From: an uncultured Bacteroidales bacterium
Lineage (GTDB): Bacteria > Bacteroidota > Bacteroidia > Bacteroidales > CAYFUP01
Reading direction: 5' to 3'
Assembly (NCBI GenBank): GCA_964346235.1
Contig: CAYFUP010000002.1
Location: 1-48,257 of the forward strand
DNA: 48,257 nucleotides
Notes under the pieces: model-generated
What the model was told of the DNA's origin: nothing
Databases searched by the model: none
Seen by the model: the letters and a program-made list of their open reading frames with translations, nothing else
Position numbers and translations under genes: made by a program
Part shown: piece by piece, positions 8,315 through 48,257 of the stretch
Position numbering within the stretch: position 1 is the first letter of the stretch
Layout: each line of letters begins with the position of its first letter

Positions 8315-8342
8315 TTGGTTTTATTAATGAGTTTGATAGTTA

Positions 8343-8495
8343 GTGGTTCTGAGAAAACGTCAATAACTGCGTGATGCTCACCTTAAGCACCAGTCATTTA
8401 CGACCAGTAAACTCCGGGCACTTAAGGCTTGCATGCCTTCTTATTGACGCCTTCTTAGAACCACTTTAGCATAATTTGTTGGTTTTCTTAGTGAC
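8343..8495 (-). repeat. Structured intergenic repeat, copy 1 (122-nt hairpin 8343-8464 plus ~30-nt conserved tail)
   Basis: 111/122 identical to 48023-48144, and the tail is also conserved. It has a 24-bp basal stem, a 12-bp middle stem and a 6-bp apical stem. Pairing is near-perfect only for the minus-strand transcript (G.U pairs). Confidence 0.85.
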
Positions 8496-8595
8496 AATAA
8501 TTAGAGAACGCATATTAGCTGTGAATATTATCTGTCCATTGGGGATTTGGGAGTTCGCCTGATTTCATTATAAACCCCTTATCAGCCATTGCCGG

Positions 8596-13717: not shown

Positions 13718-13779
13718 GTCGCTTGCAGCAATGCAATAAACCCCTCTTAACGTTTTCTTAGAATCACGAAACAATTTTC

Positions 13780-14772: not shown

Positions 14773-15039
14773 TTATTGCTGTGTTAAATTAGATGCCTGC
14801 AAAGCTAAAAAAATGTTCCTCAAAATTAGTAATTTTGTTCATTTATTGATGTGAACCATCAAAGTAAGATAAAGCATAGGGAGAAACCGGCAAATGGTTT
14901 TCAAAGGAAAGCCTTTTGTGATTGCATGAGACAGCTTTTTGTGATTGCATGATGCGTCGGCGTGAATGGCAAAATTTCAATGAAAGGTTTATAGCGGTAA
15001 ACCTGAAGAACAACATATAAACGAAGAGGAGGGAGCGTT

Positions 15040-15393
15040 ATGGAATATATGGAAGGACCAACAACAAGACAAAACAAAGTATCAAGGATGATACAAAAAG
15101 ACATGGGAGAGATCTTTCAGCGGGAAACCAATACCTTGCTGGAAGGCAAAATGGTGACCGTCACCGTGGTGAGGGTCGCAGCAGACTTCAGCCTGGCCAA
15201 GGTGTATGTGAGTATTTTTCCGTCCCATGCCAAAGATGATATCATAGACATCATCAATGAAAACAAAAAACATTTCAGGCATCAACTATCGATGAGAATA
15301 AAAAATCAATTGAAGAAAATGCCTGAACTGGCCTTTTTCATTGACGATTCACTGGATTATATAGAACATATTGAAAACCTGATTAAAAAATAA
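15040..15393 (+). CDS. rbfA: Ribosome-binding factor A
   Basis: 117 aa. RQNKVSRMIQKDMGEIFQRE and LAKVYVSIFP are typical of RbfA. The start may instead be the ATG at 15049. Confidence 0.9.
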   Translation: MEYMEGPTTRQNKVSRMIQKDMGEIFQRETNTLLEGKMVTVTVVRVAADFSLAKVYVSIFPSHAKDDIIDIINENKKHFRHQLSMRIKNQLKKMPELAFFIDDSLDYIEHIENLIKK

Positions 15394-21200: not shown

Positions 21201-24200
21201 GCTTCTCTGGTACCCTTACATTAACATTGACCGTTAATGGGAATGCCAACTGCAGTCCGGCTACCGATGCGATGGACCTGGCTGTTACCGCCAAGCCTTC
21301 CGTTGATGCGGGTAGCGATGAACAGACCTGTCAGGGGGTGGCTTTTGATCTGTCCGGTTCAGGCACCGTTCCGACCGCATCCGATTATGGCTCTCTATCA
21401 TGGGATGACGGTGGAATCGGAGGTTCCTTTGATGACAATACCGCATTGACCCCTACCTATACCCCACCAGCTGCTTATACCGGAAATATTACATTGTCAT
21501 TGACTGCCAGCGGAAATGGTTCCTGTGCTGCAGTGAATGATGATATGACCCTGAATGTATTAGCGGGTCCGACTGCCAATGCCGGCAGTGACGAGCAAAC
21601 CTGTCAGGATATAAGCTTTGATTTATCTGCATCCTCTGTTGTGCCTTCGGCTTCCAATTACAGTTCTTTAGTCTGGACTGACGGAGGGGCAGGCGGTTCA
21701 TTCAGCGATGAGACAACCTTAACACCAGTCTATACCCCACCCATTGGGTTTTCCGGAAATATAACCCTTACCCTGACCGCCAATGGAAACGCCAATTGCG
21801 GTCCGGTTTCAGATGATATGATTTTATCTGTTGAAGCAGCTCCTTCAGCCAATGCCGGTAGCGATGAAGAAACCTGCCAGGATGCCTCCTTTGATTTATC
21901 AGGTTCCGCAACGGTACCGACCGCTTCAAATTACAGTTCATTAAGCTGGAGTGACGAAGGGGCAGGTGGCTCATTTGATGATAACAGCACCCTGACTCCG
22001 GTCTATACTCCTCCGGCAGGCTTTACCGGAACCCTTACACTCACACTGACAGCCAACGGCAATGCCAGTTGCAATCCGGTTACTGACGCGATGGAGCTTA
22101 CCGTTACACCTCAACCGCAAGCCGATGCCGGTAGCGATGAAGAAACCTGTAAAGACACTCCATTTGACATATCTGCATCAGCATCAGTTCCGACTGCATC
22201 AGAATATAGCTCTTTAAGCTGGAATGATGACGGAACCGGCGGGGCTTTCGATGACAACACCCTGTTAACGCCAACTTATACTCCTCCGGCAGGCTTTACC
22301 GGCAGCATTGAACTGATCCTCGTCGCCAATGGAAACGGTTCCTGTGCCCCGGTAAGCGATACCATGACCCTGACTGTTTTGGAAGAACCTGCAGCCAATG
22401 CCGGCAGCGATGAAGAAACCTGCCAGGCTGCTTCATTTGATCTTTCAGCTTCCGCTACCAATCCAACAGCATCAGACTACAGCGCTTTAACCTGGAGTGA
22501 TGATGGTGCCGGCGGTTCATTTACGGGGGGAACAACGCTGACCCCGGTTTACACTCCGCCTGCAGGTTTCAGCGGAACCATAAACCTTATTCTCACGGCC
22601 ACTGGCAATGCCAACTGCAGTCCGGCCCGTGATACCATGGATTTGACAGTAACCGCTCAACCCATTGCTGACGCCGGCAGTGATGAGCAAACCTGCCAAA
22701 ATAATGATTTTGATTTGGCAAATTCAGCAAGCGTTCCATCAGCATCCAATTATAGCAGCCTGAGTTGGAGTGATGATGGCGCCGGCGGTTCATTTGTCAA
22801 TGGATCAACACTTACACCGGTTTATACGCCACCTGTGGGTTTTACCGGTGAAATCGATCTCATCCTGACGGCCAATGGCAATGGATCTTGTGGTCCTGTG
22901 AATGACACCATGAATCTGACCATATTGGAAGGGCCTTCAGCCAATGCCGGCAGCGATGAAGAAACTTGTCAGGATGTATCCTTTGACCTGTCAGCATCCG
23001 CCACGGTTCCCGCGGCTTCGAATTATAGTGGCCTGATATGGGATGATGATGGCGCCGGTGGTTCCTTTAATGATAATACCAGTCTCACCCCAACCTACAC
23101 CCCACCTGTAGGTTTTACAGGAAATATTTCCCTGATCATTATGGCCAATGGCAATGCCAACTGCAGTCCTGCGACGGATACGATGTTGCTGACGGTCAAT
23201 GCGGCACCGACAGCAGATGCCGGAAGTAATGAAGCGACCTGTCAGAATGTGCCGTTTGACCTGTCAACCGGTGCCACTGTTCCCAGCGCTTCGAATTATA
23301 GCGCTTTATCATGGAATGATGGAGGTGAAGGAGGTTCTTTTGACGATAATACAGCAATACATCCTGTATATACACCACCGGTTGATTATACAGGCACCAT
23401 TATCCTGACCCTTACAGCAGATGGCAATGCCAATTGCAACCCGGTGAGTGATAACATGCAGCTGACGGTCAATGCATCCCCCATTTCCGAGGCAGGCAAT
23501 GACACCAGCATTTGTTACGGGGACAGTGTACAGATACTAACCGCCGACAGTGTCAATGCAAGTACCATCGGATGGACCAGCTCAGGGGACGGAACTTTTA
23601 ATGATTCATCATTGATAAACCCATACTATAATCCAGGCATCAACGATCTGAACAGCGGCAGTGTTAAATTATATTTGCATGTCAACGGAAGGGGAACATG
23701 TTCAGGGATTGAAGTCATCGACTCCATGAACCTTGCCATCCCTGCTCAGTTAAAGGCCTCCGTCGGAGCACCCAGTCCCTTCGCCAACAATATTTCTGCC
23801 AATACCCGGATTTCGGTATCCTTTAATGTGGAAGGACATCACTACATCCAGGATGTAAGCTATTACCTGGTTGCGCCGGATGGCACTAAAATTAAAATGA
23901 AAGAACAACCGGCCGATCCAAATTGCGGCATAGATCCGTTTTTTGGATTCAGACTTCCCTGTAACACCGCCAAGAATGCAGATATTACCTTCACTACGGA
24001 AGCCAATCCCAATGATACGCTCACTGTATGCGACTGCTCCGGAGGGTATAACGAAGATCTTTCCGGCACGTTTGCCATCACGGGGGACTGGACGCCGCTT
24101 TACGGGCAGGATCCCGCAAACGGTAGCTGGGGGATAGAAATAGTGGATAAACAAAACAATGCCCTTGGTCCTGTGGAAGAACTGACCGGTTCCATCATCT

Positions 24201-27200
24201 TCAGAGATACAACGGAAGCAGGGGATACGGTTTCACTGGTGTATGAAAGTTACGGACCAAGAGATATCAATGAAGCCGGCATCACGACTTATACCCTGAG
24301 CCGGGGACTCCGGGTAAGCTGCAACGGTGCCTGTGATGCCGAAGCCATCGTGCAGGCCAGCGGCGGAACGCCTCCTTATGATTTTACCTGGAGTGGCTCG
24401 GAAACCATCAATAATAACGGAGATACCTTATATTTGTGCGCCGGAAATTATACCCTCACCGTCACCGATGCTCTGGGTTGTACCGACATGATTCCGGTGG
24501 AAGTCACCGAACCTGAAGCCCTTATCTTTAAAGGCATCAGCTATACCGATTCCATCTGTGAGTTTTCAAGTGCAGGTGAGATAACGGTTGACAGCGCCGG
24601 CGGCGGAACCGGTAACGTGACCGTATCCATCAACGGGACTGATTTTTATCCGTTACCCCATACATTCAGTAACCTGGGCATTGGGGATCATAGGATTTCA
24701 TTATCGGATGACAATAAATGTATTGAAGACACCATCATCACCATTCACCGTATTGATTCCATGCGGTTCGACCTGGAGGTTACACCGCTTACCTGTGCGG
24801 AAGATTTGGGAAGCATCCTCATCAAAAATATCAGGGGAGGAACCCCTTCCTTGTTCAGCATAGACGATACCCTGCATTTTGAGCCGGACGATGGGTTTGG
24901 TGGTTATACCTTCCAGCAGTTCGGCAATGACAGTGCGCTGTTCTCGGGACTTCCCGGCGACAGCAACTATATTACTGCGATAAAATCAAGCATCGGATGT
25001 GTCACCTACGGGGATACCATTTCGCTCGTAAAACCGGACACCTTGGTATTTGATTCTTTATATTATGATGACAGCATCAAAGTTGAAAACGGCGATACGA
25101 TCAACTTACTCGTGGCCGGTGATAGTGCACAAATAGAAATCTTTGCCCATGGCGGGGCAGGGGAATTGTCCTATTTCCTTGCTGATACCGGGACAGCCAT
25201 CCACGATAGCCTGTTCACAGCGGATTCTGTATTCAACCTGCATGCAGGGGTTTACTACACGGCGGTGTCCGACTCCAATGGTTGTCAGAAACTGGGTGAC
25301 ACCCTCCTGGTGACCCAACCCGACTCCATCCTGATTGATACGGTCATCACTGAAAATATCCTTTGCCATGGCGATTCGTCCGGAGTAATTCAGATTAGTG
25401 CCAGTGGGGGTACCCTGCCTTTAAGGTATTGGTTGACGGCGGAAGACACAATTTACCGGGGACCGCAATCCGATACGGTTTTCACGGATTTGCCGGCTGA
25501 TACTTTCACAGTCGTGGCGGCTGATACCAATGGATTCACCAATGTCAACGAGACGGTGGTCATCATTTCGCAACCGGATGAGTTGCTCACGGATGATGCT
25601 TTGTTCAACATTACCTGTTTTGGGGCCGGCAATGGACGCATTGAAATAGAACCATCAGGGGGTGCAGCACCCTATGATTATTCCATTGACAGCGCCAATT
25701 CCTATTTTGCGCTGAATCAGACCGGCAGACTGGATACCACCGGTTTACTGCCTGGTACTTATCCGGTGGCGGTCAGGGATACCAATGGCTGTATCAGCTA
25801 TGGAAACAGATTTACCCTTGCTGAACCGGATTCCATTGCCATTGATTCGGTTTATCACAACATGACCAAATATCAGTCCGGCGATACCATTGCCTTTGCC
25901 TGTGCGGGTGAAACTACTGACATGACTATCTTTGCACGAGGTGGTTCCGGAACGTTGGAATACTTCCTCCAGGATACCTCAGTGGCTGTCCAGGATGGAT
26001 TGTTCGCTGAAGATTCTGTGTTTACCGTCGGGGCAGGGGTTTATTACCTGGTGGTCAGGGATTCCAGCAATTGTGAACGATACGGCGATACCATCCCGGT
26101 TGTTGAGCTTTCCGATTCCATCATGGTTCATGATATTTCTGTGAATACCATCCTTTGTCATGGCGACAGCTCGGGAATAATATCCGTTGACTCGGTCACC
26201 GGTGGATGGGGTGGTTATCAGTATTCCCTGGATGGAGTGGATTACCAGGATGATAGCTTGTTTACCGGTCTGCTTGCAGGAAAGCATTATGTGTATGTAA
26301 GGGACAGCATGGGTTGTCTGGCGGTGGACTCCGTGGAAATAAACCAACCCCCCGAACTTGAAATCGATACCATTATTAAAGAAGATATCCGCCTGGATAC
26401 CCTGGGCACCATCATCATAGGCGCAAGTGGCGGCATCAGGCCTTTTGAATATGCTTTGGACGGACCGACTGATTTTGATTTCGGTGCGGATTCTGCATAC
26501 ATCGACACCCTGCTTCCTGGCAAATATGATGTCTTTGTCCGCGATGCCAATGGCTGCCTGGATTCTGCCATCGTACTGATAGTGGGTGATTCCCTGAACG
26601 GGGAAGTCAACATATTGAGCCATGCATTGTGCAACGGAAGCAATGAAGGTTCCCTGGAGATCAACATATTCAATGGGACAGGAATTATTAACTACGCCAT
26701 AGAGGGCATCACCGGTGGGACTGAATACCTGCATGAGGGGACCACGGATGCCAGCTGGCAGCAGGATGGACTGATGGCTGACAGCTATGTGATCACGGTG
26801 GTGGATCAGGAAAACAAGTTATTTACAGATACCGTTGAAATTACCGAACCATCTGCCATTCGGTTCGACAGTGTTGTCACCACCCCGGCAAGCGGTGGAA
26901 ACGGTGGTTCCATCACCATATTTGCCGATGGAGGAACCAAACCATATCAATATTCCATTTATGGCGACACGACTGATAACTACCAGCAGGATTCGTCGAT
27001 GACCGGTTTAAAACCGGGCATCTATTCCGTATTCGTCATGGATACCAATGGCTGTAAGATCGATACATCCGTTACCATCATCAGTGATGACATCCTGGAC
27101 CATAGCATCATAGTAAAGCAGGTGACTTGCTTCGGGGATGAAGACGGGGAGATAGCCATTACACCGGTTAACAATCAGGGAGAAGTGGAATACCGGTTAA

Positions 27201-30200
27201 GCTTTGATTCCAGGAACATCATTTCCTACAGTGAAAATCAAATGGTATTTAACAACCTGGCCCCGAACACTTATGATTTGTTCATGGTCGATACTGCTTA
27301 TAAATATTTTGATACCACCCTAGTCATCAGTCAGCCTTCCGCTCCGGTAACCATCGATTCTGTTCAAAAACAGAATGTGGTAGCGGCCAATCCTGGCGCC
27401 ATCGAGATCTTTGCGCACGGTGGAAGAGGATCCCTGGAATACTCCGTATATGGTGATGTGGACACCGCATACCATTCCGGTTCTCAATTTAATGGGCTTT
27501 CCAGCGGACTGTATGAGGTGTTTGTCAGGGACAGCAATTTATGTTCGGATGATACCCTGGTAACCATCCTCAGCGAGGATACCCTGGATATCAACATAAC
27601 TGTAACTCCGGCACTATGCCATGGCTCAGGCACCGGTACAATTAACCTTGAACCGGTGGATAATGCGGGTGAAGTGACTTATATTTTCTCCGGAGCCATT
27701 CAGGATACCGTCGCCAGTGATACTACGGTGGCCATAACGAACCTTCTTGCCGGGGACTATGGACTGTTTGCCAGGGATACGGCGGGACAGACTTTTGATA
27801 CCTTGATCAGGGTACAGGAACCGGATCAGTTGAATATTGACAACCTGGTGACCGAAGATATGCGCGGCGATACCCTGGGGTCCATTTTTATTGGCGCTTC
27901 AGGGGGAACCAAACCATACCAGTATAAGATTTACAGCGATTCTGCCTATACCTCAGATTCTGCATATGTGGATACCCTGAGACCCGGAATTTATGAAGTA
28001 TTTGTCATGGATGCCAATGGATGCATGGATTCCGTCAAAACCTACATCAGCGGAAGCCGGCAGCTGGATGTAAAAGACACCATCATGAGTCATGTAGCTT
28101 GCCATGGCAGCAATGAGGGATCCATTTTAATGGAGGTGTTTAACGGAATGGGACCTATCGAGTATGCCATTGATGGAACAGATACCCGGTATGAATTTGA
28201 ATCCACCGACAGCACCTGGCAAAAAGATGATCTGTATGCGGATACCTATGTCGTCACCGTTCGGGATGACAGCAATCAGTCATTTATAGATACCCTTATA
28301 ATCACTGAACCGGCTGCCCTGAAGTTTGACAGCATTACAACCATAGCTGCCGATTCGGTCAACAACGGTTCCATGAACCTGTTTGCCGGAGGAGGGATAC
28401 CACCTTATGAATACGCCATCGGCAGGGATTCCCTGTTGCCGTTTGTGGATACTTCCGGGTTTGATAACCTGAAACCCGGCAGGTACAGCGTAATGCTGAG
28501 GGATTCAAACCTTTGCACGAAAGATACCCTGGTCGTCATCCGGGGAGAAGATACCATCCGCACCACCATCTCTGTCAAACATGTCACCTGTTATGCTGAT
28601 GAGGATGGGGCGATTACGGTGATTCCACTAAACAGCAGCGGTGAAGTGGAATACCAGTTGCAGTACGGAAACACCAACATCATTGCATTTGAATCGGATA
28701 CCCAAAGGTTCGAAGCATTGGGGCCTGATGAGTACTATCTGTCCATGGTGGATACGGCCAATAAGTTTTTCGACACCACGCTGACCGTTGGTCGTCCGGA
28801 TGACCCCGTAAGCATAGATTCAGTGGTTCAAAATCAGATAAGCATGGGCATCCTGGATACCATGATGGTGTATGCCCATGGCGGCAGGGGAGATCTGGAT
28901 TACCGGATTGAGAGCGATACATTATCCCGCTCACAAGAAGACTCTGTCTTTACGGGTCTGCCCATCAACATTTATAAAGTATTTGCGGCGGACAGCAATG
29001 GTTGTATGGATTCCGCCCTGGTAAAAGTCAAGACGGATTCTTTGCTGGACATGAACGTGGTTCGCTCGAATGTTACCTGTGCCGGTGGCATGAATGGTGC
29101 TTTCGAATTCACACCTCTGGATAATAACGGTCCTGTTACTTATCGCGTGGTGGCTCAGGTGTTGCCTTTTGATACCACGTATAGCTCAGCGCAACCTTTT
29201 GTACTGGATTCACTGATGGCGGACACTTATGTAATACTGGCATGGGACACCAGCATAGTTCCGAAGATGCTGGATACCACCCTTGTCATTTCTGAACCTG
29301 ATCCCATCAATTACAGCATAACCAAACAAAATGAGTCGAATATAAATCCGGGCAGCGTCACCATTCACGCTACCGGAGGATTGGGCGATCTGGAATATTC
29401 GCTGGACAGCGGAACCGTATTCCGGGATACCAATTATTTTGACGGATTAGCAGCAGGTACTTATCACATGGTCATACGCTCCTCCCTGGATACTTTGTGT
29501 TCTGTCAGGGACAGCATCAACATACTGCAACAACTGGATGTCAATGTGGCCACCCAGCCGGTTGCCTGCCACGAAGCAGGAAACGGTTCGGTAGCAATTA
29601 CCATCACTGACAGCGAAGCCTTGTTGCCCATCCGGTATGTGATCAACGGGGATACCACCGTTTCGAATGCCATGTCTCACAGCACGGATACCCTGGAAGG
29701 GGGAATCTATCAGATAAATATACTGGACAGCATCAACAGGCGGTTTGATACCTCGATAACGGTCATAGAACCCGACCCGGTCAATATTTCCAGCTTTGAA
29801 GTCAACGATGTATTATGTCATGGGGATACCACAGGCAGCGTTTCGGTGACTGCCATTTCCGGTGGTTGGTTTGTATATGAGTATTCCCTGAATGGCATGA
29901 ATTACCAGGATTCTTCGGCTTTCTACGGACTGCCGGCAGGGGAATATACTTTATTTGCCAGGGATTCTGCCGGATGTGTTGCAAATCCCAGGGATTTTGA
30001 AATTCAGGAACCCGCTGAAATTGAATTAAACATCACCACCAGGGATGCCATGGGTCCTGATTCATTAGGCGTTATCGACATCGCTTCCACCGGAGGCACC
30101 GGTTCTCATCAGACCAGGATACATGAAGATTCGGCTTTCACGGACAGTAATCTTTATGAAGGGCTGCAACCGGGATACTACGATGTGGGAGTGTTGGATG

Positions 30201-33103
30201 AGAACGGCTGTATCAAAGATACGGTGGTCATTATAGGCGGTTCAGATCTGCTTGAAATTCAGGTGGAAGTCCTCTCAGATGTGCTTTGCCATGGAGATAA
30301 TACCGGCAGGCTTTCCATTCAGACGTTTAATGCAGAAGGTGCTATCAATTACCGGATCGAGGGCGTTCAGACGGACAGCATTTATCTGTTCGAGACGGAT
30401 TCGACCAGCATTGCCGTCAGTGAACTGTTTGCTGATGAATACCGCATTACAGTGAGGGACTCAGCCTATAAAGCATCCAGTCAGACGATAACCGTTAACC
30501 AACCCGAACGCTTAAGATTTGACAGCATTCATTCCATAGCTGTTCGACATGAAGACACCCTCGGCAGCCTTGAAATATTTGCCGGCGGGGGAACACAACC
30601 ATATTCTTATTACCTGAGCGGTACCGGTCAGCCTTTTGAACCTACGGTTAATCCGTTCATCGATAGTCTCCTTCCGGGCTATTACGGAATCGGTTTAACA
30701 GATGACAATGGCTGCCGCATCGATACCGCTGCGATTGTCAGGGGCATTGACACCATCGACACGGATGTTGATGTGCAAAACATCCTTTGTCATGGCAACA
30801 GCTCAGGGATCATCACCATAGCCCCGCGTGACTCCGGATTATTTGAATATACCATAGCCAGCGTGTCGGCTATATACGACACCATCCTGGATACTGCCTG
30901 GGTAAAAGACAGGTTGCTGGCTGACACGTACAGGATATTTGTGGAAGATACCAACCTGAATACCTTCGATACCTTGGTGATCATTTCTCAGCCGGTTGCT
31001 CCTGTGACGGTTGACAGCATCGTGACCACGCCGTTTGTCAGCGCTGACAGTCTCGGAACCATCACCGTCTTTGCCCATGGTGGCACAGGGGATTTATCAT
31101 ATGCCTTGCAGGACGAAGACAGGTATCAGGATGATTCGGTGTTTGCAGACTTAAGACCCGGAATTTACGAGGTGTATGTGAGGGATTCCAATGAATGTAC
31201 GGTCATGCGTACCGTCAAAATCACCGGGGAAGATACCCTGGATGCCAATATCGCATCAGTAAAACCTGTTTCCTGTGAAGCGGCAAATAACGGAGGCTTT
31301 GTCATTGCCATCACCGATTCCCTAAAAAGTGACAGTGTGAGTTATTGGGTGAATGGCGTTTCCTTATATATCAATGACACCACCGTTCAGGACACCATAC
31401 GGATAGATTCCCTTTCGATGGGCACCTATGAGTTCCTGGCTGTGGATTCATCAGGAAAGTCCTTTGAAGCCACCGTTGAAGTCCGGGGACCGGAAACACC
31501 CATTCGGATAGATACCATCCTGGCAGAACATGCCAGCAATTTATTTGATCAATTCCCGGGTGCGCTTACCATCCATGCTTCCGGAGGAATGGAAGGAGAA
31601 TTGCGCCAGGTAGAAGTTTACAAACAGGGGGGGTTAGTAAAGGATACCATTGTACAAAGCGACACCATAATTATAGATAGCCTGAGCGCCGGCAATTACG
31701 AAGTTTATCTGAGGGCCGGTGAATCACCGGAGAATTGCTATGTGACGGATAGTGCGGAAATCCTGCCTCCTTTGAATGTCATCATCACCCATAAAGACAT
31801 TACCTGTAACGGGGATGAGGACGGAGAAATGCGCATCGCCATTGAAGATACCTCAGCCCTGCCTTTGTTTGATTTTAAGATATATGATAATGAGGACTTT
31901 TATGCCGGCCAGGATACTACGGTAGTAGAGATTATCATCAAAGAAGGGGGCCAGGTTCCGATAAGCATAACCGACAGCCTTTCCAGAAGGTTCGATACCA
32001 CGGTGTTTGTCTTTGAGCCGGATTCCATCGGGGTTGTCAACACCGTCATCGATAAACCGTTTTGCAACAAGTATGCAGTAGGTGCACCCGAAGGGGTCAT
32101 CACCCTCGATAGTGTAAAAGGGGGACGGTCGCCTTATACTTATGAATGGTATAAATACAACGAAACGGCACAGGACTTTCAGTTGCTGAGTATCGACTCG
32201 GTGGCTTCGAAGGACAGCCTTTCCAGGGGATTGTATGAGGTGAGCATCATTGATACCATGGGCTGTATGCATACCAGGCGCTATGATCTTCAACCGGTGA
32301 CCGACGCTTCCAATGAGGTATTCATTGACAGTGTGTATGCCGGCGAAAACATGGAGATTTGTCCGGATAAGCCAATAACCCTGGATGGCTATATCGATCC
32401 GCTTTCATTGGGAAGGGATATCAACACCATCCAATGGATAAGAGAGTCAGATGAAAGCATCATTGCCAACAGGCCCGATCCGGAAAATGAAGTGTATCCT
32501 TTAAGGAACGGATACACAGAAACCTATACCCTGATGGTCAGCAATGATAAGTGTTATGATTCATCTTCTTTCAATGTGAAGGTGTATGAACAGATCGGCA
32601 TCGACCTGGCAGCAGAGGATACTGTGGTATTCAGGGGCGATTCGGTGAAACTGTATTCCAATCCGTGGTTCAATGTTTATCAATGGGAGCCGGTTGAATA
32701 CCTGAGCGATACCAACATATCCAATCCTTATGCCAAACCCATGGTGGATACCGTATGGTACGAGTTAACTGCCTATACGGTGAATGAATGTATGGAGCAT
32801 GACTCCATCCGGATTCTGATGGTTACCAATGATAATTATGAGCCCGCCAATGCATTCACACCGAATGGAGATGGCATTCATGACAAATGGGAACTGCCAC
32901 ATCCCGAAGATGTGGATGAGGTGGAAATATATAACCGGTGGGGGGAACGAATTTTCTATTCAAAAGAATATGACAGTGATAAGGCGTTTGATGGAAATGC
33001 TGCAAATGGAAAACCATTGCCTACCGGAACCTATTATTATATCATTAAATTTAAATATGGGGATGTAAAACCGGAAACAGGAACCATAACGATAGTGAGG
33101 TAG
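18224..33103 (+). CDS. Giant (4959 aa) SprB-like cell-surface repeat adhesin with a T9SS type-B C-terminal domain
   Basis: One uninterrupted ORF. The parts in order are: signal peptide MPSNYKSYILLIIGFFSSLALHA; 3 SprB repeats; 16 exact 91-aa repeats plus 1 degenerate; a proprotein-convertase P-domain-like segment; ~32 SprB-type modules (CxGxxxGxI...GGxxPYxY...DxNGC); and the C-terminus NAFTPNGDGIHDKW...IYNRWGERIF...GTYYYII...GTITIVR, the gliding-motility CTD (TIGR04131/CHU_C type). Confidence 0.9.
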   Translation: MPSNYKSYILLIIGFFSSLALHAIDVSLDTTSVTCNGSNDGIVHTMVTNDNNPPYDYYLYDVFPGGNPVDSIKSTPSKDTAFHDLSGDKYTVLVSNSNDDIAARSIQLREPDPLSIDSLPCIQRLTCFYGSDAKLQANVSGGNGGNTYRWYKDTLGSYQLINQDSAVLTNVHQSNYVVAVEDKNGCTDSSEVINFISFFPDYADSIPDAQIQQDSVNSTDACQGQNNGEIRIYFSGGTGSLEYAVVRDGSGDTTNWGSSNTISGLQPGTYRVYVRDAFGCIKKKDDGDVVIGEIPAPAVDAGSDEETCEDTQFDLSGSATVPTASNYSSLSWNDGGTGGSFDDNTSLTPVYTPPADFSGSITLTLTATGNANCNPVSDNMELTVTARPAADAGSDEQTCKNTDFDLSNASTEPTASDYSSLSWDDGGAGGSFDDNTLLTPVYTPPNGFTGDITLTLTADGSGSCSQVNDIMTLTVVESPIANAGSNEETCEDTPFDLSASTTVPSASNYSSLSWDDGGAGGSFDDATSLTPVYTPPTGFTGTITLTLTANGNANCSPDTDDMDLTVTAKPSVDAGSDEQTCQDASLNLAGSSSIPTASNYSSLTWSDGGAGGSFDDETLLRPVYTPPNGFTGDIALTLTADGNGSCDPVNDDMTLAVLEGPAANAGSDEETCRDIAVDLGNSAVVPTASNYNSLSWDDDGTGGTFDDNTNLTPVYTPPNGFSGTITLILTANGGANCDPAKDTMELTVHASPIANAGSNEETCEDLPFDLSGSTSVPTASNYSSLSWSDGGAGGSFDDNTGITPVYTPPAGVSGNITLTLTAFGNASCNSTSDDMELTVTAQPAADAGSNEQTCINSGFDLTTSGTLPSASNYSSLSWSDGGAGGTFDDETTLRPVYTPPNGFTGNITLTLTASGNGSCSPVTDNMTLNVVQGPTANAGSDEETCQDVAMDLSTSFTVPTASNYSSLYWSDGGTGGSFDDSTRLTPVYTPPAGFSGTLTLTLTVNGNANCSPATDAMDLAVTAKPSVDAGSDEQTCQGVAFDLSGSGTVPTASDYGSLSWDDGGIGGSFDDNTALTPTYTPPAAYTGNITLSLTASGNGSCAAVNDDMTLNVLAGPTANAGSDEQTCQDISFDLSASSVVPSASNYSSLVWTDGGAGGSFSDETTLTPVYTPPIGFSGNITLTLTANGNANCGPVSDDMILSVEAAPSANAGSDEETCQDASFDLSGSATVPTASNYSSLSWSDEGAGGSFDDNSTLTPVYTPPAGFTGTLTLTLTANGNASCNPVTDAMELTVTPQPQADAGSDEETCKDTPFDISASASVPTASEYSSLSWNDDGTGGAFDDNTLLTPTYTPPAGFTGSIELILVANGNGSCAPVSDTMTLTVLEEPAANAGSDEETCQAASFDLSASATNPTASDYSALTWSDDGAGGSFTGGTTLTPVYTPPAGFSGTINLILTATGNANCSPARDTMDLTVTAQPIADAGSDEQTCQNNDFDLANSASVPSASNYSSLSWSDDGAGGSFVNGSTLTPVYTPPVGFTGEIDLILTANGNGSCGPVNDTMNLTILEGPSANAGSDEETCQDVSFDLSASATVPAASNYSGLIWDDDGAGGSFNDNTSLTPTYTPPVGFTGNISLIIMANGNANCSPATDTMLLTVNAAPTADAGSNEATCQNVPFDLSTGATVPSASNYSALSWNDGGEGGSFDDNTAIHPVYTPPVDYTGTIILTLTADGNANCNPVSDNMQLTVNASPISEAGNDTSICYGDSVQILTADSVNASTIGWTSSGDGTFNDSSLINPYYNPGINDLNSGSVKLYLHVNGRGTCSGIEVIDSMNLAIPAQLKASVGAPSPFANNISANTRISVSFNVEGHHYIQDVSYYLVAPDGTKIKMKEQPADPNCGIDPFFGFRLPCNTAKNADITFTTEANPNDTLTVCDCSGGYNEDLSGTFAITGDWTPLYGQDPANGSWGIEIVDKQNNALGPVEELTGSIIFRDTTEAGDTVSLVYESYGPRDINEAGITTYTLSRGLRVSCNGACDAEAIVQASGGTPPYDFTWSGSETINNNGDTLYLCAGNYTLTVTDALGCTDMIPVEVTEPEALIFKGISYTDSICEFSSAGEITVDSAGGGTGNVTVSINGTDFYPLPHTFSNLGIGDHRISLSDDNKCIEDTIITIHRIDSMRFDLEVTPLTCAEDLGSILIKNIRGGTPSLFSIDDTLHFEPDDGFGGYTFQQFGNDSALFSGLPGDSNYITAIKSSIGCVTYGDTISLVKPDTLVFDSLYYDDSIKVENGDTINLLVAGDSAQIEIFAHGGAGELSYFLADTGTAIHDSLFTADSVFNLHAGVYYTAVSDSNGCQKLGDTLLVTQPDSILIDTVITENILCHGDSSGVIQISASGGTLPLRYWLTAEDTIYRGPQSDTVFTDLPADTFTVVAADTNGFTNVNETVVIISQPDELLTDDALFNITCFGAGNGRIEIEPSGGAAPYDYSIDSANSYFALNQTGRLDTTGLLPGTYPVAVRDTNGCISYGNRFTLAEPDSIAIDSVYHNMTKYQSGDTIAFACAGETTDMTIFARGGSGTLEYFLQDTSVAVQDGLFAEDSVFTVGAGVYYLVVRDSSNCERYGDTIPVVELSDSIMVHDISVNTILCHGDSSGIISVDSVTGGWGGYQYSLDGVDYQDDSLFTGLLAGKHYVYVRDSMGCLAVDSVEINQPPELEIDTIIKEDIRLDTLGTIIIGASGGIRPFEYALDGPTDFDFGADSAYIDTLLPGKYDVFVRDANGCLDSAIVLIVGDSLNGEVNILSHALCNGSNEGSLEINIFNGTGIINYAIEGITGGTEYLHEGTTDASWQQDGLMADSYVITVVDQENKLFTDTVEITEPSAIRFDSVVTTPASGGNGGSITIFADGGTKPYQYSIYGDTTDNYQQDSSMTGLKPGIYSVFVMDTNGCKIDTSVTIISDDILDHSIIVKQVTCFGDEDGEIAITPVNNQGEVEYRLSFDSRNIISYSENQMVFNNLAPNTYDLFMVDTAYKYFDTTLVISQPSAPVTIDSVQKQNVVAANPGAIEIFAHGGRGSLEYSVYGDVDTAYHSGSQFNGLSSGLYEVFVRDSNLCSDDTLVTILSEDTLDINITVTPALCHGSGTGTINLEPVDNAGEVTYIFSGAIQDTVASDTTVAITNLLAGDYGLFARDTAGQTFDTLIRVQEPDQLNIDNLVTEDMRGDTLGSIFIGASGGTKPYQYKIYSDSAYTSDSAYVDTLRPGIYEVFVMDANGCMDSVKTYISGSRQLDVKDTIMSHVACHGSNEGSILMEVFNGMGPIEYAIDGTDTRYEFESTDSTWQKDDLYADTYVVTVRDDSNQSFIDTLIITEPAALKFDSITTIAADSVNNGSMNLFAGGGIPPYEYAIGRDSLLPFVDTSGFDNLKPGRYSVMLRDSNLCTKDTLVVIRGEDTIRTTISVKHVTCYADEDGAITVIPLNSSGEVEYQLQYGNTNIIAFESDTQRFEALGPDEYYLSMVDTANKFFDTTLTVGRPDDPVSIDSVVQNQISMGILDTMMVYAHGGRGDLDYRIESDTLSRSQEDSVFTGLPINIYKVFAADSNGCMDSALVKVKTDSLLDMNVVRSNVTCAGGMNGAFEFTPLDNNGPVTYRVVAQVLPFDTTYSSAQPFVLDSLMADTYVILAWDTSIVPKMLDTTLVISEPDPINYSITKQNESNINPGSVTIHATGGLGDLEYSLDSGTVFRDTNYFDGLAAGTYHMVIRSSLDTLCSVRDSINILQQLDVNVATQPVACHEAGNGSVAITITDSEALLPIRYVINGDTTVSNAMSHSTDTLEGGIYQINILDSINRRFDTSITVIEPDPVNISSFEVNDVLCHGDTTGSVSVTAISGGWFVYEYSLNGMNYQDSSAFYGLPAGEYTLFARDSAGCVANPRDFEIQEPAEIELNITTRDAMGPDSLGVIDIASTGGTGSHQTRIHEDSAFTDSNLYEGLQPGYYDVGVLDENGCIKDTVVIIGGSDLLEIQVEVLSDVLCHGDNTGRLSIQTFNAEGAINYRIEGVQTDSIYLFETDSTSIAVSELFADEYRITVRDSAYKASSQTITVNQPERLRFDSIHSIAVRHEDTLGSLEIFAGGGTQPYSYYLSGTGQPFEPTVNPFIDSLLPGYYGIGLTDDNGCRIDTAAIVRGIDTIDTDVDVQNILCHGNSSGIITIAPRDSGLFEYTIASVSAIYDTILDTAWVKDRLLADTYRIFVEDTNLNTFDTLVIISQPVAPVTVDSIVTTPFVSADSLGTITVFAHGGTGDLSYALQDEDRYQDDSVFADLRPGIYEVYVRDSNECTVMRTVKITGEDTLDANIASVKPVSCEAANNGGFVIAITDSLKSDSVSYWVNGVSLYINDTTVQDTIRIDSLSMGTYEFLAVDSSGKSFEATVEVRGPETPIRIDTILAEHASNLFDQFPGALTIHASGGMEGELRQVEVYKQGGLVKDTIVQSDTIIIDSLSAGNYEVYLRAGESPENCYVTDSAEILPPLNVIITHKDITCNGDEDGEMRIAIEDTSALPLFDFKIYDNEDFYAGQDTTVVEIIIKEGGQVPISITDSLSRRFDTTVFVFEPDSIGVVNTVIDKPFCNKYAVGAPEGVITLDSVKGGRSPYTYEWYKYNETAQDFQLLSIDSVASKDSLSRGLYEVSIIDTMGCMHTRRYDLQPVTDASNEVFIDSVYAGENMEICPDKPITLDGYIDPLSLGRDINTIQWIRESDESIIANRPDPENEVYPLRNGYTETYTLMVSNDKCYDSSSFNVKVYEQIGIDLAAEDTVVFRGDSVKLYSNPWFNVYQWEPVEYLSDTNISNPYAKPMVDTVWYELTAYTVNECMEHDSIRILMVTNDNYEPANAFTPNGDGIHDKWELPHPEDVDEVEIYNRWGERIFYSKEYDSDKAFDGNAANGKPLPTGTYYYIIKFKYGDVKPETGTITIVR
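19121..23488 (+). repeat. Intragenic tandem array: 16 units of exactly 273 nt (91 aa); a 17th degenerate unit follows at 23489-~23750
   Basis: Unit starts ((D/N)AGS(D/N)E.TC) are at 19121, 19394, 19667, 19940, 20213, 20486, 20759, 21032, 21305, 21578, 21851, 22124, 22397, 22670, 22943 and 23216. Every spacing is 273 nt. Confidence 0.95.
26402..31555 (+). repeat. Intragenic super-repeats: three six-module SprB-type blocks (26402-27874, 27875-29347, 30065-31555) with a 3-module spacer
   Basis: Landmarks are LGTIIIGASGG at 26402, LGSIFIGASGG at 27875 and LGVIDIASTGG at 30065. Blocks I and II are each exactly 1473 nt and block III is 1491 nt. The order of module types is conserved. Confidence 0.8.
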
Positions 33104-43629: not shown

Positions 43630-46095
43630 ATGGTTAGCTATAATACAGGATCACTTGTCAGAATAATTGATGCCAGACTGTATGGTGATGAAAACAAGGA
43701 AATCGATAATATTTCTATTGACAGCCGCAAGATAATCAATCCTGGCTCTGCTTTGTTTTTTGCCATTCGTGGGCCAAACCGGGATGGACACCGGTTCATT
43801 CATGAAAGTCACCAGCTGGGCGTCAGGGCATTCGTGGTGGATACACTGCCTGAGGACCATCAGCGATATGCAGAAACCACTTTCCTGGTGGTGGATGATG
43901 CCATCAAAGCCGTTCAACAGCTGGCAGCTTACCACCGGAAACAATTCAGATATCCTGTAATCGCTATCACCGGGAGCAACGGAAAGACAATAGTGAAGGA
44001 GTGGTTAAATCAACTGCTGGAGCCGGAAAAAAGCATTGTGAGAAGCCCGAAAAGCTATAATTCACAGATAGGCGTGCCATTGAGCCTGTTCCTGATGCAT
44101 GAATCGGCTGATATGGCAATCATAGAGGCCGGCATTTCTTTGAAGGGTGAAATGGAAAAACTGGAGCAAATGATTAAACCTGATACCGGCATCATCACCA
44201 ATATTGGGGAAGCACATCAGGAAAATTTCTCCGGATATGATGAAAAAACTCACGAAAAGATCAAGCTGTTTTCAGGGGTAGAAACCATTCTTTATTGCAG
44301 GGATTATGATGCCATTCACCAGGCCATCAAAAGGAAGTACCCGGACAAGCATGTTTTTAGCTGGTCAACCGAAAGAAATGCAGATGTCATCATTAAAAAG
44401 ATTGAAAAAGCCGCGGGCAGTGCGAAGATAAAATATGCTTTTCACAATAAGAAAGCCTCCATTGTTATCCCTTTCTCTGACAGGGCTTCGGTTGAAAATG
44501 CCATTCATTGCCTGGTTTATATGCTGTATTCGAGATACGACCCTTCCACCATCAAAAAAAGAATGAAAGTCCTTGGCCCTGTAGCCATGCGCCTGGAAAT
44601 AAAACAGGGCATCAACGATTCTGTCATCATCAATGACAGTTATAACTCGGATCTGAATTCATTGTCCATCGCCATTGATTTTCTGAACCAGCAATCCAGG
44701 CTTGAGAAGAAGACCCTTATATTGTCCGATATCCTGCAAAGCGGAATGGATGAGCCTCATCTGTACAGAAAGGTCAGTGAAATCGTGCAGCAAAAAAAAG
44801 TACACCGGATCATTGGCATAGGCAGCGCCTTAAAGAAGAATGCGGCTCTCTTCACCGGAGATGCCAGGTTTTATGAGTCCACCGATGCATTCATTCAGCA
44901 TTATAATTTTGAGCAAATCGGTGGTGAAGCCATTTTATTGAAAGGGGCCAGGCCATTCAGGTTTGAGCGGATATCCAGAAGGCTTGAGAACCTGGCCCAC
45001 AGGACATTGCTGGAGGTAAACCTCAATGCCCTTTTGTACAACCTGAATTATTTTCGTTCCGGCCTGAATCCCGGTACCCGCATTATGGTCATGGTGAAAG
45101 CATTCTCTTATGGAAGCGGATTATATGAGGTGGCCTCCTTTTTGCAATACCACAGGGTAGATTATCTTGGAGTGGCTTTTGTGGATGAAGGAGTGACCCT
45201 GAGAAAATCCGGCATCAAACTGCCTGTCATGGTCATGCAGCCCGAAGAAGGAAGCTTCGATGTCATGATTGAGCATGGAATGGAACCTGAAATTTACAGT
45301 TTCATCATCCTTGAACAGTTTATTAATGCATTGAAGCATAAAAAAATACAGGAATACCCGGTTCATATCAAGGTGGATACCGGCATGCACCGTTTGGGTT
45401 TTATGAATCATCAGGTGGATGAATTAATAAGAAGACTCAGGGAAGTCCCGCAGATAAAAGTCCAATCTGTCTTCTCCCACCTGGCTGCGAGCGATGAAGA
45501 AGTGCATGACCAATTTACCGGAAGTCAGTTTGAGGCATTTGAGAAAATCAAAAAGGTGTTTCGAGCATCATTTGATCATAAGATCATGTATCACATTCTT
45601 AATTCGGCCGGCACTGAACGTTTTCCTGAATATCAACATGATATGGTGCGACTGGGAATCGGCCTATACGGGGTGAGCTGTCTGCACGATATCTCTCTCA
45701 AAAACATAAGCACACTGAAAAGCCGGATAATACAGATTAAGACGGTACATGCAGGGGAGACTGTGGGTTATGGAAGAAAAGGATTGGCCGGTTCGGAAAA
45801 GCAGATTGCCGTCGTTCCCATTGGCTATGCAGATGGGTTGAACCGCCACCTGAGCAATGGCAAAGGATATTTCATGGTCAGAAACCAAAAAGCCCCCATT
45901 TTTGGGAACATCTGTATGGATGTGACGATGATTGATGTGACCGGATTGAACGCTCTTGCAGGAGAAGAAGTGATCATCTTCGGGGCGGGTTTTTCCATTG
46001 AAGAAATGGCGAAGAAACTGAATACCATCCCATATGAGATTCTTACCGGCATATCCCAACGGGTGAAACGCGTATATTACCAGGATGAGCAATAA
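43630..46095 (+). CDS. Bifunctional Mur-ligase (MurF-like) / alanine racemase fusion
   Basis: 821 aa. The N-terminal Mur ligase part has AITGSNGKT and ITNIGEAH. The C-terminal Alr part has the PLP-lysine motif MVMVKAFSYGSG, DTGMHRLGF and GYADG. This fusion is common in Bacteroidota. Confidence 0.9.
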   Translation: MVSYNTGSLVRIIDARLYGDENKEIDNISIDSRKIINPGSALFFAIRGPNRDGHRFIHESHQLGVRAFVVDTLPEDHQRYAETTFLVVDDAIKAVQQLAAYHRKQFRYPVIAITGSNGKTIVKEWLNQLLEPEKSIVRSPKSYNSQIGVPLSLFLMHESADMAIIEAGISLKGEMEKLEQMIKPDTGIITNIGEAHQENFSGYDEKTHEKIKLFSGVETILYCRDYDAIHQAIKRKYPDKHVFSWSTERNADVIIKKIEKAAGSAKIKYAFHNKKASIVIPFSDRASVENAIHCLVYMLYSRYDPSTIKKRMKVLGPVAMRLEIKQGINDSVIINDSYNSDLNSLSIAIDFLNQQSRLEKKTLILSDILQSGMDEPHLYRKVSEIVQQKKVHRIIGIGSALKKNAALFTGDARFYESTDAFIQHYNFEQIGGEAILLKGARPFRFERISRRLENLAHRTLLEVNLNALLYNLNYFRSGLNPGTRIMVMVKAFSYGSGLYEVASFLQYHRVDYLGVAFVDEGVTLRKSGIKLPVMVMQPEEGSFDVMIEHGMEPEIYSFIILEQFINALKHKKIQEYPVHIKVDTGMHRLGFMNHQVDELIRRLREVPQIKVQSVFSHLAASDEEVHDQFTGSQFEAFEKIKKVFRASFDHKIMYHILNSAGTERFPEYQHDMVRLGIGLYGVSCLHDISLKNISTLKSRIIQIKTVHAGETVGYGRKGLAGSEKQIAVVPIGYADGLNRHLSNGKGYFMVRNQKAPIFGNICMDVTMIDVTGLNALAGEEVIIFGAGFSIEEMAKKLNTIPYEILTGISQRVKRVYYQDEQ

Positions 46096-46264: not shown

Positions 46265-47119
46265 CTACACCGGATTGTTTTTCCTGGCATAAGTCATGCA
46301 CCTCTCCCAGTCTTCCTGGTACATTTCCCTGATTTCCTCCATGGCATCTTCGGGGATTAATGGTTCCTTTCCGAAGACAGATTCGGGCAACAGGGCAGCA
46401 ACATATAAGGTGGTGTACCGGATAAAAGCCACATATAAATGACGCAGCTTATCAGGTACTTTATATTTAAACCGGATGTGCGGCTGGATGTTTATTCTTT
46501 TTCCTATGGCCAGCGTGGCTTTCATCTGTTTTTCACTGTAGGAAGTGTGCTTTCGGGACAAAGATATCCTGTCCGCGTCATAGGAGGCATTCATGTATCT
46601 TGCCAACCGGTCGATAAAAGCAAGCGGATCTTTTTTCATGTCCTCATAAAACAATACCAGGGGCTTGTGAGAAAAATATTTTTCAAGGATTTTGATTTTG
46701 TCGTGGTACACCAACTCCTTCTTTTTCCATTTGCCGGTGTCATGGATATGATCAAAGAAATCAGAAAAATGCCAGGGATATCCGTTTTTGGCATAGCGCC
46801 TGTATTGGGAGGCGATCCAACTGTCATGCCTCCGGAGCAACAGGATGGGTTTTGCGTTGGGAAAATGGCCGGAAATGAATTGGGATTCCCTTTCCAGGTA
46901 TTCATGTTTATCAAATTCCCGGGATATTAAAAATCTTTCCTCATGGCGCTTGCTGATGATAAGGGGTGTCCTTTTATATTGGGTTCGCTGAATATAATGA
47001 ATGTTCCTGAAATGAGGAAACACCTTGTACTGCAGATAAGTGGATGCCACTTTTCCTAAGCCGGGATGAAAAAATACCGTTTTTTCCTGTTTCGACATGT
47101 CTTTGTTATTAGAACCCAT
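46265..47119 (-). CDS. Putative sulfotransferase-fold protein
   Basis: 284 aa. FFHPGLGKVASTYLQ resembles the 5'-PSB loop. LLLRRHDSWIASQYRRY resembles the 3'-PB motif (R..D...S). Assigned from motifs only. Confidence 0.45.
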   Translation of the reverse strand: MGSNNKDMSKQEKTVFFHPGLGKVASTYLQYKVFPHFRNIHYIQRTQYKRTPLIISKRHEERFLISREFDKHEYLERESQFISGHFPNAKPILLLRRHDSWIASQYRRYAKNGYPWHFSDFFDHIHDTGKWKKKELVYHDKIKILEKYFSHKPLVLFYEDMKKDPLAFIDRLARYMNASYDADRISLSRKHTSYSEKQMKATLAIGKRINIQPHIRFKYKVPDKLRHLYVAFIRYTTLYVAALLPESVFGKEPLIPEDAMEEIREMYQEDWERCMTYARKNNPV

Positions 47120-47162: not shown

Positions 47163-48011
47163 TTATTTTAATTCAGCAATGGCACATGATAAATAAAACT
47201 TGATTTCCTTAAGAAAAGCTTTTATTTTAAATACTGTGCTTTTTTGGTTATGAGGAGGCAGCAGGATGCGATGCATCACATGACTTTTCAGTCTGATCCA
47301 GCGCCTCGTTCTTTTGCCTGAAACCGTATCTACGATGGAACCCAAATCAATGCTGTGAACTTCTTTGTCAAGTTTCCACAATCTTTTATTAATGACCCTG
47401 GTTGACATACCCGCAGCAGGGATCACCACTTCCACCTTGTCCACGGCTTCCATGACTTTTTGCCACCAATGATCAATTTCCCAGTAAGAATTCCGTGATG
47501 GCACCTCCACGTAGTAATCCACCGGACCGATTAATTTTTCAATGTCATGTTTTGGTATGCATCCGATAAAGAGCTTTTTTTTAGGACGGATAAAATTATC
47601 CAGGAAACTGATCATATCCATGTATTTGTAAATGGAATAATAATGGGTAAACCAGGCGCTTTCAAATACCATTTTGTCTTCATACCCAAAACGGTCTAAC
47701 AAAAAATTTAACATGCGGTCGTTTTTCCGGTAAGGTTTCATAAAACCTTTATACATGCCTTTTTCAGCAGGATAGTTAACGGCAAGTCCTTTTAAGTAAG
47801 CCGCATCACTGATTTCAAAAGATTCAACCATTTCTTTTTGCAGTTCAGGATGAAAGTCATGGTTTTGCTGACTTAATCCCATCATAATATATATATCACC
47901 ATCTCCAAACCGGGAATAGAATACTTTCTTTTCTTTTTCAAGAAGCCTGCATAAAGTATCAAAGGTTTCTCCGGTGGATTTTGTTGCTATTTTTCCCTGT
48001 GTATTGTTCAT
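47163..48011 (-). CDS. Hypothetical protein, possibly a GT-D / DUF1792-like glycosyltransferase
   Basis: 282 aa. YSRFGDGDIYIMMG resembles the RFGDGE motif of DUF1792-type enzymes. Nothing else is recognisable. The ATG lies 11 nt from hairpin repeat copy 2. Confidence 0.35.
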   Translation of the reverse strand: MNNTQGKIATKSTGETFDTLCRLLEKEKKVFYSRFGDGDIYIMMGLSQQNHDFHPELQKEMVESFEISDAAYLKGLAVNYPAEKGMYKGFMKPYRKNDRMLNFLLDRFGYEDKMVFESAWFTHYYSIYKYMDMISFLDNFIRPKKKLFIGCIPKHDIEKLIGPVDYYVEVPSRNSYWEIDHWWQKVMEAVDKVEVVIPAAGMSTRVINKRLWKLDKEVHSIDLGSIVDTVSGKRTRRWIRLKSHVMHRILLPPHNQKSTVFKIKAFLKEIKFYLSCAIAELK

Positions 48012-48022
48012 GATGCCTAATT

Positions 48023-48177
48023 GGTGGCTCTAAGAAAACGTCAATAACTGCGTTGTGCTCACCTTAAGCACCAGTCATTTACGATCAGTAAACTCCTGGC
48101 ACTTAAGGCTCGCATGCCTTGTTCTTGACGCCTTCCCAGAACCACTTTAGAATAATATGTTCGTTTTCTTAATGTCA
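48023..48177 (-). repeat. Structured intergenic repeat, copy 2 (hairpin 48023-48144 plus conserved tail)
   Basis: It has the same length and architecture as 8343-8495, with 11 substitutions in the 122-nt hairpin. The basal stem pairs as minus-strand RNA with 18 Watson-Crick pairs, 5 G.U and 1 mismatch. Confidence 0.85.
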
Positions 48178-48257
48178 CTATTTATCAGTTAAACCATTTG
48201 ATTTTCATCTGTGATAAATTTTATGTTAAACCATTGTATTTCAAATAAATAATAAAT

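Follow-up and report, generated by a model that had tools for sequence, protein, structure and literature searches.

The repeat unit and its neighbours

The window analysed here is a 48,257-nt contig (C2) of a 2.92-Mb metagenome-assembled genome (MAG) that comprises 232 contigs and belongs to an uncultured Bacteroidales bacterium; the same locus is present in a microbial-mat metagenome. A repeat search of the window revealed that positions 8337-8503 (copy 1) pair with 48018-48184 (copy 2) over 167 nt, without gaps and at 88% identity. The unit of copy 2 consists of a 122-nt hairpin, a 33-nt 5′ module (48146-48178) and a 6-mer on either side. Close to its 3′ end begins a minus-strand gene that had been described as GT-D-like, a description that survives only as a weak, sub-threshold match (PF08759, 25.1 bits vs a cut-off of 27). 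The features discussed below are as follows.

48179..48184, minus strand: left (5′) flanking 6-mer of copy 2, TAAATA, read from the sequence as a target-site duplication (family-wide TAWWTA at both ends)
48146..48178, minus strand: 5′ module of copy 2, outer terminal inverted repeat GTGACATTAAGAAAAC plus linker GAACATATTATTCTAAA (consensus of 79 copies)
48024..48145, minus strand: 122-nt hairpin of copy 2, its foot being the inner, right terminal repeat (folds; cmsearch)
48074..48096, minus strand: apical motif GGAGTTTACTGATCGTAAATGAC, a 6-bp stem GUUUAC/GUAAAU with closing G·U and a tandem GA/GA loop beside it (exact-pattern scan; alignments A3 and A4)
48018..48023, minus strand: right (3′) flanking 6-mer of copy 2, CAATTA, read from the sequence as a diverged target-site duplication, 4/6 identical to the left one
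47163..48011, minus strand: gene for a 282-aa protein, not part of the element, ATG 12 nt past the hairpin foot (ORF; PF08759)
46265-47119: sulfotransferase-like gene, next after the GT-D-like gene
8337..8503, minus strand: copy 1, whole element (repeat search, alignment, fold, cmsearch with covariance model R1)
8337-8342, 8343-8464, 8465-8497 and 8498-8503, minus strand: right 6-mer TAACTA, hairpin, 5′ module and left 6-mer TAATTA of copy 1
13746..13768, plus strand: solo fragment like the element's 3′ end (AACGTTTTCTTAGAATCAC), in the gap between convergent genes

In the 5′ module of copy 2, the outer repeat corresponds to the 3′ end GTTTTCTTAGAGCCAC read as its reverse complement, and no part of the family is better conserved than the apical motif. 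Identity to the family consensus is 94.8% for copy 2, and the flanking pair of copy 1 (TAATTA/TAACTA) is identical at five of six positions. The element is ~155 nt in size, and no ORF of 60 aa or more is listed inside either window copy. Dozens of solo ends like that at 13746-13768 occur elsewhere in the genome, below the profile-search threshold.

The original prediction held that eleven substitutions separate the two hairpins and that these fold better as minus-strand RNA. Aligning 48024-48145 with 8343-8464 recovered all 11 at the positions claimed, among them the UGGUC to UGAUC change in the apical loop and the single basal-stem position that is altered on both arms (A·C in copy 1, G·U in copy 2). 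RNA folding favoured the minus strand in both copies, with -71.4 kcal/mol (z -8.7) against -48.9 (z -4.6) for copy 2 and -66.4 against -57.6 kcal/mol for copy 1. Folding with DNA parameters kept this asymmetry at a smaller size (-29.0 vs -21.2 for copy 2, -27.9 vs -25.2 for copy 1), and a covariance model (R1) matched both hairpins on the minus strand only, at 101.5 bits for copy 2 and 81.0 bits for copy 1. The predicted adjacency of the copy 2 hairpin to the ATG at 48011 holds as well, at a measured distance of 12 nt from the foot (which ends at 48024) instead of the 11 nt claimed; the foot of copy 1 lies 28 nt before the ATG at 8314, as had been stated, and its flanking 6-mer ends 22 nt before that ATG.

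Two occurrences of the 11-mer AATGGTTTAAC, spaced 37 nt apart, lie directly upstream of copy 2 on the minus strand (48185-48257), within an imperfect direct repeat whose units, 48173-48204 and 48210-48241, are 72% identical. This region could be an operator or promoter of the GT-D-like operon, shifted 161 nt from the gene by the insertion. Convergent with the GT-D-like/sulfotransferase pair is an 821-aa ORF (43630-46095) in which a Mur ligase (MurF-like) is joined to a complete alanine racemase (Ala_racemase_N, Ala_racemase_C).

Ends, copy number and decay of the family

The ends of the element were defined from 79 copies aligned with their flanks, in which conservation drops abruptly outside GTG...CAC. 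Read on the minus strand of the window, the unit consists of a 6-mer, GTGACACTAAGAAAAC-TAACAAATTATTCTAAA, the hairpin GTGGTTCTAAGAAGGCGTCAA...TTGACGTTTTCTTAGAACCAC and a second 6-mer. Its terminal inverted repeats (GTG...AAGAAAAC) span 16-19 nt, the 5′ GTGACACTAAGAAAAC corresponding to the reverse complement of the 3′ end GTGGTTCTAAGAAAAC. The outer 16 nt repeat the 3′ end in inverted form, which gives the element its terminal inverted repeats; a second, inner copy makes up the hairpin foot. The ends that a cognate insertion sequence (IS) would have to match are GTGnnnnTAAGAAAAC or GTGTCTGTCCATAAAG, with a TAWWTA duplication.

The flanking 6-mer TAWWTA is found at both ends and is identical left and right in 27 of the 79 copies, as compared to 8.0 expected from shuffling; its central dinucleotide agrees in 44/79 (15.6 expected). 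Because the centres pair as AA/AA (18 copies) or TT/TT (10 copies) and never as AA/TT (0), the 6-mer is a direct repeat and no part of the inverted repeat, and on the same grounds we rejected a TA duplication of the IS630/Tc1-like kind with the WW inside the repeat. Rare 6-mers are duplicated too (TAGATA, TAGTTA, TATCTR and AAAATA here, TAACTA and TAATTC in other genomes). The internal sequence distance between copies is 0.157 within a 6-mer class and 0.156 between classes (p = 0.55), so that the 6-mer marks the insertion site and can be rejected as a subfamily marker. These data point to target-site duplications of 6 bp, preferentially at TAWWTA, and thus to a MITE-like non-autonomous element. 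Deletion derivatives of ~55 nt (the 5′ module plus GTGGTTCTNAGAACCAC) and ~23 nt retain both ends and the duplicated 6-mer. The same short forms were found in G023, a genome that belongs to a different family within the order, is better assembled and carries ~45 elements. The hairpin-less forms have varied duplicated 6-mers; if they transposed as such, the core would be dispensable for transposition.

Searching the genome with copy 2 by blastn returned 210 matches, and nhmmer delineated at least 227 non-overlapping loci, 84 of them full length, which make up 0.86% of the genome. Copies are 77-96% identical to the consensus (median 91.6%) and mainly intergenic, with 2/88 full copies overlapping a called ORF. 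With many of its matches at contig ends, the family has a large share in the splitting of the MAG into 232 contigs. A second repeat module, AAAAACAATTGTTTACACTTTTGTAGTGTATGTGAGAAAAC, was seen at C10:6497-6803, C61:5792-6098, C159:3971-4277, C44:4935 and C91:46; in ~10 copies it takes the place of one end or lengthens it, and it is also found in tandem with short forms. In this respect the family is built as a mosaic from modules and includes a variant terminal repeat, GTGTATGTGAGAAAAC.

We counted stem substitutions in 83 copies at 44 Watson-Crick pairs taken from the folded consensus. The departures comprised 165 G·U, 112 A·C, 286 other mismatches and 23 compensatory changes, and G·U stood against A·C at 104 vs 97 once three subfamily-like columns were left out. 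Stem substitutions within the genome thus look like neutral decay with a transition bias near 2, and the contention that substitutions between the copies preserve pairing fails on these counts. The consensus hairpin itself contains 6 G·U and 0 A·C pairs, and the minus (sense) strand folds better in 80/83 genome copies; because this advantage stems from the consensus, the pairing pattern between the two window copies is inherited and not selected.

IS elements are often missing from MAGs. In this MAG we found no autonomous element with the same ends, no multi-copy IS by self-megablast, only ordinary genes in the intervals between solo 5′ and 3′ ends, no rve or DDE_Tnp_1 domain and no genuine Y1_Tnp, the lone match to the latter (20.4 bits) being a membrane protein. 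G023 yielded no autonomous element either: its terminal-repeat pattern gave end pairs ~130 nt or ~40 nt apart and never 1-3 kb, and glycogen genes adjoin a doubled left end there. Clustering of 606 ORFs from 118 loci in many taxa revealed no recurring transposase or other protein family beside the element. Because the searches of the MAG, of G023 and of these loci gave none, the transposase is putative; a 6-bp stagger would suit enzymes of the IS481, IS21, IS982 or IS1634 type, given the typical duplication lengths of these families.

Orthologous loci had been proposed as a check, through empty sites and any target-site duplication. The duplicated 6-mers are indeed present at the flanks. The search for an empty site gave none: the identical insertion is present in two further assemblies of the copy 2 locus, one of which adds 55 nt of upstream flank; exact-protein look-ups led to the same filled locus for the GT-D-like gene and to nothing for the other gene; and neither an empty-site DNA pattern nor a protein-anchored scan of metagenome contigs found one. 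The genus is represented by a single genome, with none congeneric to compare. Since no empty site was recovered, we infer mobility from anatomy.

We consider it highly probable that 48018-48184 is a decaying copy of a non-autonomous, MITE-like DNA transposon of ~155 nt that has spread through this genome. It is small and non-coding, with terminal inverted repeats and a 6-bp direct flanking repeat, and the family occupies 227 dispersed loci; the original prediction had offered a mobile element as one of two explanations, and this half of it is borne out. Insertion would proceed at TAWWTA through a staggered 6-bp cut, fill-in of which would leave the 6-mer duplicated, and a transposase supplied in trans would recognise the GTG...AAGAAAAC terminal repeats. 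The site 12 nt upstream of the GT-D-like gene would be an outcome of AT-rich intergenic target choice, with no dedicated regulatory role.

A hairpin core shared across phyla

In other families of the order, diverged relatives have retained the TAWWTA flanks, the GTG...CAC ends, a 5′ foot-copy module and, most notably, the apex. Three motifs mark the core: GGAGUUUACU-loop-GUAAAUGAC at the apex, the tandem GA/GA loop, and the loop CAAGGC/UAACGCAG. Scanning species-representative genomes with the apex pattern GGAGTTTACT-N3-4-GTAAATGAC returned at least 118 contigs. Among the matches listed, most are from Bacteroidota (Bacteroidales, Marinilabiliales, Saprospiraceae, Chitinophagales, Vicingaceae, Rikenellaceae and others), ~20 from Clostridia, Christensenella or Eubacteriales, several from Campylobacterota (Sulfurimonas, Arcobacter, Helicobacter) and one each from Cloacimonadota, Chlorobiota and Enterobacterales. 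By contrast, the exact 19-base apex pattern had 0 matches in 2.9 million viral contigs (IMG/VR), and blastn searches of phages, plasmids and E. coli genomes, with the copy as well as with a cross-taxon consensus, returned nothing. Judged from the apex matches, the inner hairpin is, unexpectedly, conserved in at least six bacterial phyla.

All apex-bearing loci fold into one architecture. From the apex outward, a 6-bp GUUUAC/GUAAAU stem closed by G·U is followed by the tandem GA/GA loop and a long variable helix; on the foot side there come, in order, a small purine loop, a 3-4-bp helix, the asymmetric CAAGGC / UAACGCAG loop, a 3-bp helix and the foot. Three different end types carry this same core. 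In carriers elsewhere, the place 5′ of the core is taken by another module, a small GC-rich hairpin, which can be inverted or missing; the core hairpin, not the 5′ module, is therefore the constant unit.

The covariance model that matched both window copies, built from 38 diverse sequences, gave 112 matches in 100 loci. In the resulting alignment, whose fitting to the model favours pairing and G·U, 87.3% of cells are paired, as compared to 64.1% in shuffled sequences and 38-44% when partners are slid, and compensatory changes fall at 33/37 pairs (868 cells). With the apex excluded, since its invariance follows from choosing loci by apex, G·U outnumbers A·C by 232 to 87 (2.7 to 1) in this same model-fitted alignment. 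Across taxa the helices vary while the loop sequences stay invariant, and the sense strand folds better in 68/73 sequences. Strong as it is, covariation alone cannot tell a DNA palindrome from an RNA; a palindromic DNA element covaries alike on both strands.

Outside Bacteroidota, the gene 3′ of the hairpin lies on the opposite strand in 17/20 loci, the hairpin foot often abuts or overlaps the stop codon of that gene, and co-directional placements are antisense in 8 cases and sense in 1. Local GC skew agrees with hairpin orientation in 18/20 of these loci, although gene strand confounds this figure. Bacteroidota show no skew bias (41 vs 42 and 37 vs 47), and the 46 copies along a 2.68-Mb single-contig chromosome are mixed locally in orientation.

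Two variants were seen among the cross-taxon loci. In some core-hairpin copies of other Bacteroidota genomes (L063, L068, L073, L081 and L086), the 3′ arm has an extra stem-loop just past UAAC, e.g. AACAGGGCAAGCACCCTGTGGGTG, which may be an additional helix of variable occurrence or an insertion nested in the hairpin. In Clostridia/Christensenella MAGs (L061, L079, L103, L123, L069, L140), the hairpin often occurs in 2-3 tandem copies with a period of 170-200 nt; Clostridia hairpins are also found within ribosomal-protein operons, e.g. between rpsL and rpsG, and always antisense to the operon.

Competing readings and related elements

That both window copies directly precede a minus-strand ORF and point the same way had suggested a shared structured leader, that is, a cis-regulatory or processing module selected to control envelope and glycan genes. 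Placement across the genome, in neighbourhoods drawn from a crude ORF-based gene set (87% coding density), tells against it: the 227 loci lie beside unrelated genes (e.g. polyphosphate kinase, glycoside hydrolases, radical-SAM methylthiotransferase-like), full copies between co-directional genes are sense in 21 cases and antisense in 21, with 17 in divergent and 13 in convergent gaps, and 43 sense and 41 antisense copies lie 5′ of gene starts, with 36-41 copies 3′ of genes. Orientation of the element relative to genes in this genome is random, so two window copies that both lie 5′ of a same-strand gene are expected by chance in about one case in four. The stems show no compensatory maintenance inside the genome, and Rfam 15 held no leader or other family that matched the window or 15 related loci at gathering or permissive thresholds, the best match (WsnRNA46, 18.8 bits vs a threshold of 65.3) being at chance level. 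What is left of the leader idea is a trend: sense copies sit nearer to start codons than antisense copies (median 56 vs 128 nt; 16 vs 6 within 40 nt; Mann-Whitney p = 0.003), and the start codons near them look credible. A leader as a selected function is largely refuted, we give that reading very little credence, and the position before the GT-D-like gene is incidental. Inspection of both strands of the element by eye revealed no Bacteroidetes promoter (TTTG...TAnnTTTG); genes 12-30 nt past an element, including the GT-D-like gene, leave no room for a promoter and must therefore be transcribed through or out of it.

A strand-asymmetric structure with G·T pairs, in a high-copy intergenic hairpin whose orientation tracks local GC skew outside Bacteroidota, would also be expected of a REP/BIME-type or IS200/IS605-derived palindromic element (PATE) moved as single-stranded DNA by a Y1 HUH transposase (RAYT/TnpA). 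We regard this origin as most improbable. Y1 transposition makes no target-site duplication, whereas a clear 6-bp one is seen here; the only Y1_Tnp match is the membrane protein mentioned above; and the 122-nt hairpin far exceeds a REP and lacks a GTAG or CGTC head. The locally mixed orientation and the lack of skew bias in Bacteroidota argue against replication-coupled single-strand transposition of the IS200/IS605 kind, and we rejected replication-strand coupling on these grounds.

A DDE transposase normally constrains the terminal repeats only, which leaves an internal hairpin conserved across phyla with strand-specific G·U pairs unaccounted for. The core may be functional in its own right, as a small RNA, a cis-acting RNA motif or a single-stranded DNA recognition hairpin, a proposal we hold tentatively; equally tentative is the thought that it binds a widely conserved protein on the G·U strand, the MITE ends being a mere vehicle in Bacteroidota. 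Such a function would fit the occurrence of the exact apex in at least 118 contigs and at least six phyla (and in none of the viral contigs), the excess of pairing over shuffled sequences and the compensatory changes, the invariant loops within variable helices, the prevalence of G·U over A·C outside the ascertained apex, the better fold of the sense strand both across taxa and in this genome, the presence of one core under three end types and the biased orientation to the adjacent gene outside Bacteroidota. Weighing against it are the fit of the alignment to a model that favours pairing and G·U, the ascertainment of the apex, the capacity of a palindromic DNA element to covary alike on both strands, and the lack of any partner protein encoded nearby among the ORFs clustered; moreover, copies in this genome decay neutrally, so most of them are not under selection here. 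Conservation on this scale is unusual for a MITE and sets the element apart, as ~95% of clustered bacterial MITEs fall in genus-specific clusters in one survey (PMC11602168).

We keep the MITE-like transposon as the reading of the window copies themselves, with the one-strand fold advantage as a property of the founder sequence that would trace to a much older cross-phylum hairpin module. That module most likely persists since lineages that lose it would stop propagating, which would amount to a cis-requirement on one strand. In its broadest form, the proposal is that a ~125-nt rod-like hairpin with the apex GGAGUUUACU-N3-5-GUAAAUGAC may be an undescribed strand-specific module of at least six phyla that acts as RNA or single-stranded DNA via a conserved factor and rides on, or constitutes, small mobile elements, the window MITE being one vehicle; we put this forward as a possibility that is somewhat doubtful.

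Correia elements have a TA duplication, a specific 26-bp repeat, an IHF site and outward promoters, and they are known only from Neisseria. The element described here differs from them in its 6-bp TAWWTA duplication, its unrelated ends, the lack of a recognisable promoter and its cross-phylum core, and we saw no sequence relationship between the two, with neither the Neisseria 26-bp repeat nor the TA duplication encountered. Correia (CREE/NEMIS), bcr1 and ERIC are the closest described elements (PMC3184786). The likeness to Correia lies in a 100-160-nt non-coding MITE with terminal inverted repeats, the whole unit forming one long hairpin, that is high-copy and intergenic, often abuts gene starts and is able to enter transcripts (PMC3184786). 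The bcr1 element of the Bacillus cereus group is ~155 nt long and mobile, with 5-bp AT-rich direct repeats, and its compensatory changes keep an RNA-level structure that is eroded in many copies (PMC3184786). It thus resembles our element in size, mobility, short AT-rich flanking direct repeats and eroded structure; unlike the single rod-like hairpin with a 6-bp duplication seen here, bcr1 is a cruciform of two stem-loops, is limited to a single species group, and its transcription is established.

The enterobacterial ERIC/IRU and YPAL elements are likewise imperfect palindromes (127-168 nt) in transcribed intergenic regions, family-wide and with orientation-dependent effects on mRNA, but ERIC has TA flanks, is known only from Enterobacteriaceae and Vibrio, and is dissimilar in sequence and loop motifs. 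REP/BIME elements with their RAYT share the high-copy intergenic palindromes for which orientation and strand matter; by contrast, REPs are 20-40 nt long, with a GTAG/CGTC head, no target-site duplication and a cognate Y1 gene, none of which holds here.

For the window, these results are deflationary: the supposed shared leader is in all likelihood a transposon copy, and 48018-48184 and 8337-8503 should be annotated as repeats. As a cis-requirement for mobilisation, the core would point to a machinery of transposition that has gone unrecognised and that reads one strand of a long hairpin; as an RNA, it would be a widespread, multi-copy structured RNA so far undescribed. Either reading is testable in cultivable carriers, candidates being Marinilabilia rubra WTE16, Cerina litoralis F89, Geofilum sp. 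and Arcobacter sp. 15-2, and the covariance model can flag these repeats in Bacteroidota MAGs.

Three further features of the genome were recorded. On contig C72, a 7.5-kb unit is assembled twice head to tail (1-7508 and 7542-15051, 99.85% identity), which probably reflects a tandem duplication or else a small circular replicon, either plasmid or phage. In the window, a 4959-aa ORF (18224-33103) contains 16 exact-period 273-nt repeats (19122-23516) and many more diverged ones, its product being a giant surface or adhesin-like protein. At the start of the contig, positions 6-123 hold a run of the heptamer CAGTAGG and its variants that overlaps a short, open-ended minus-strand ORF.
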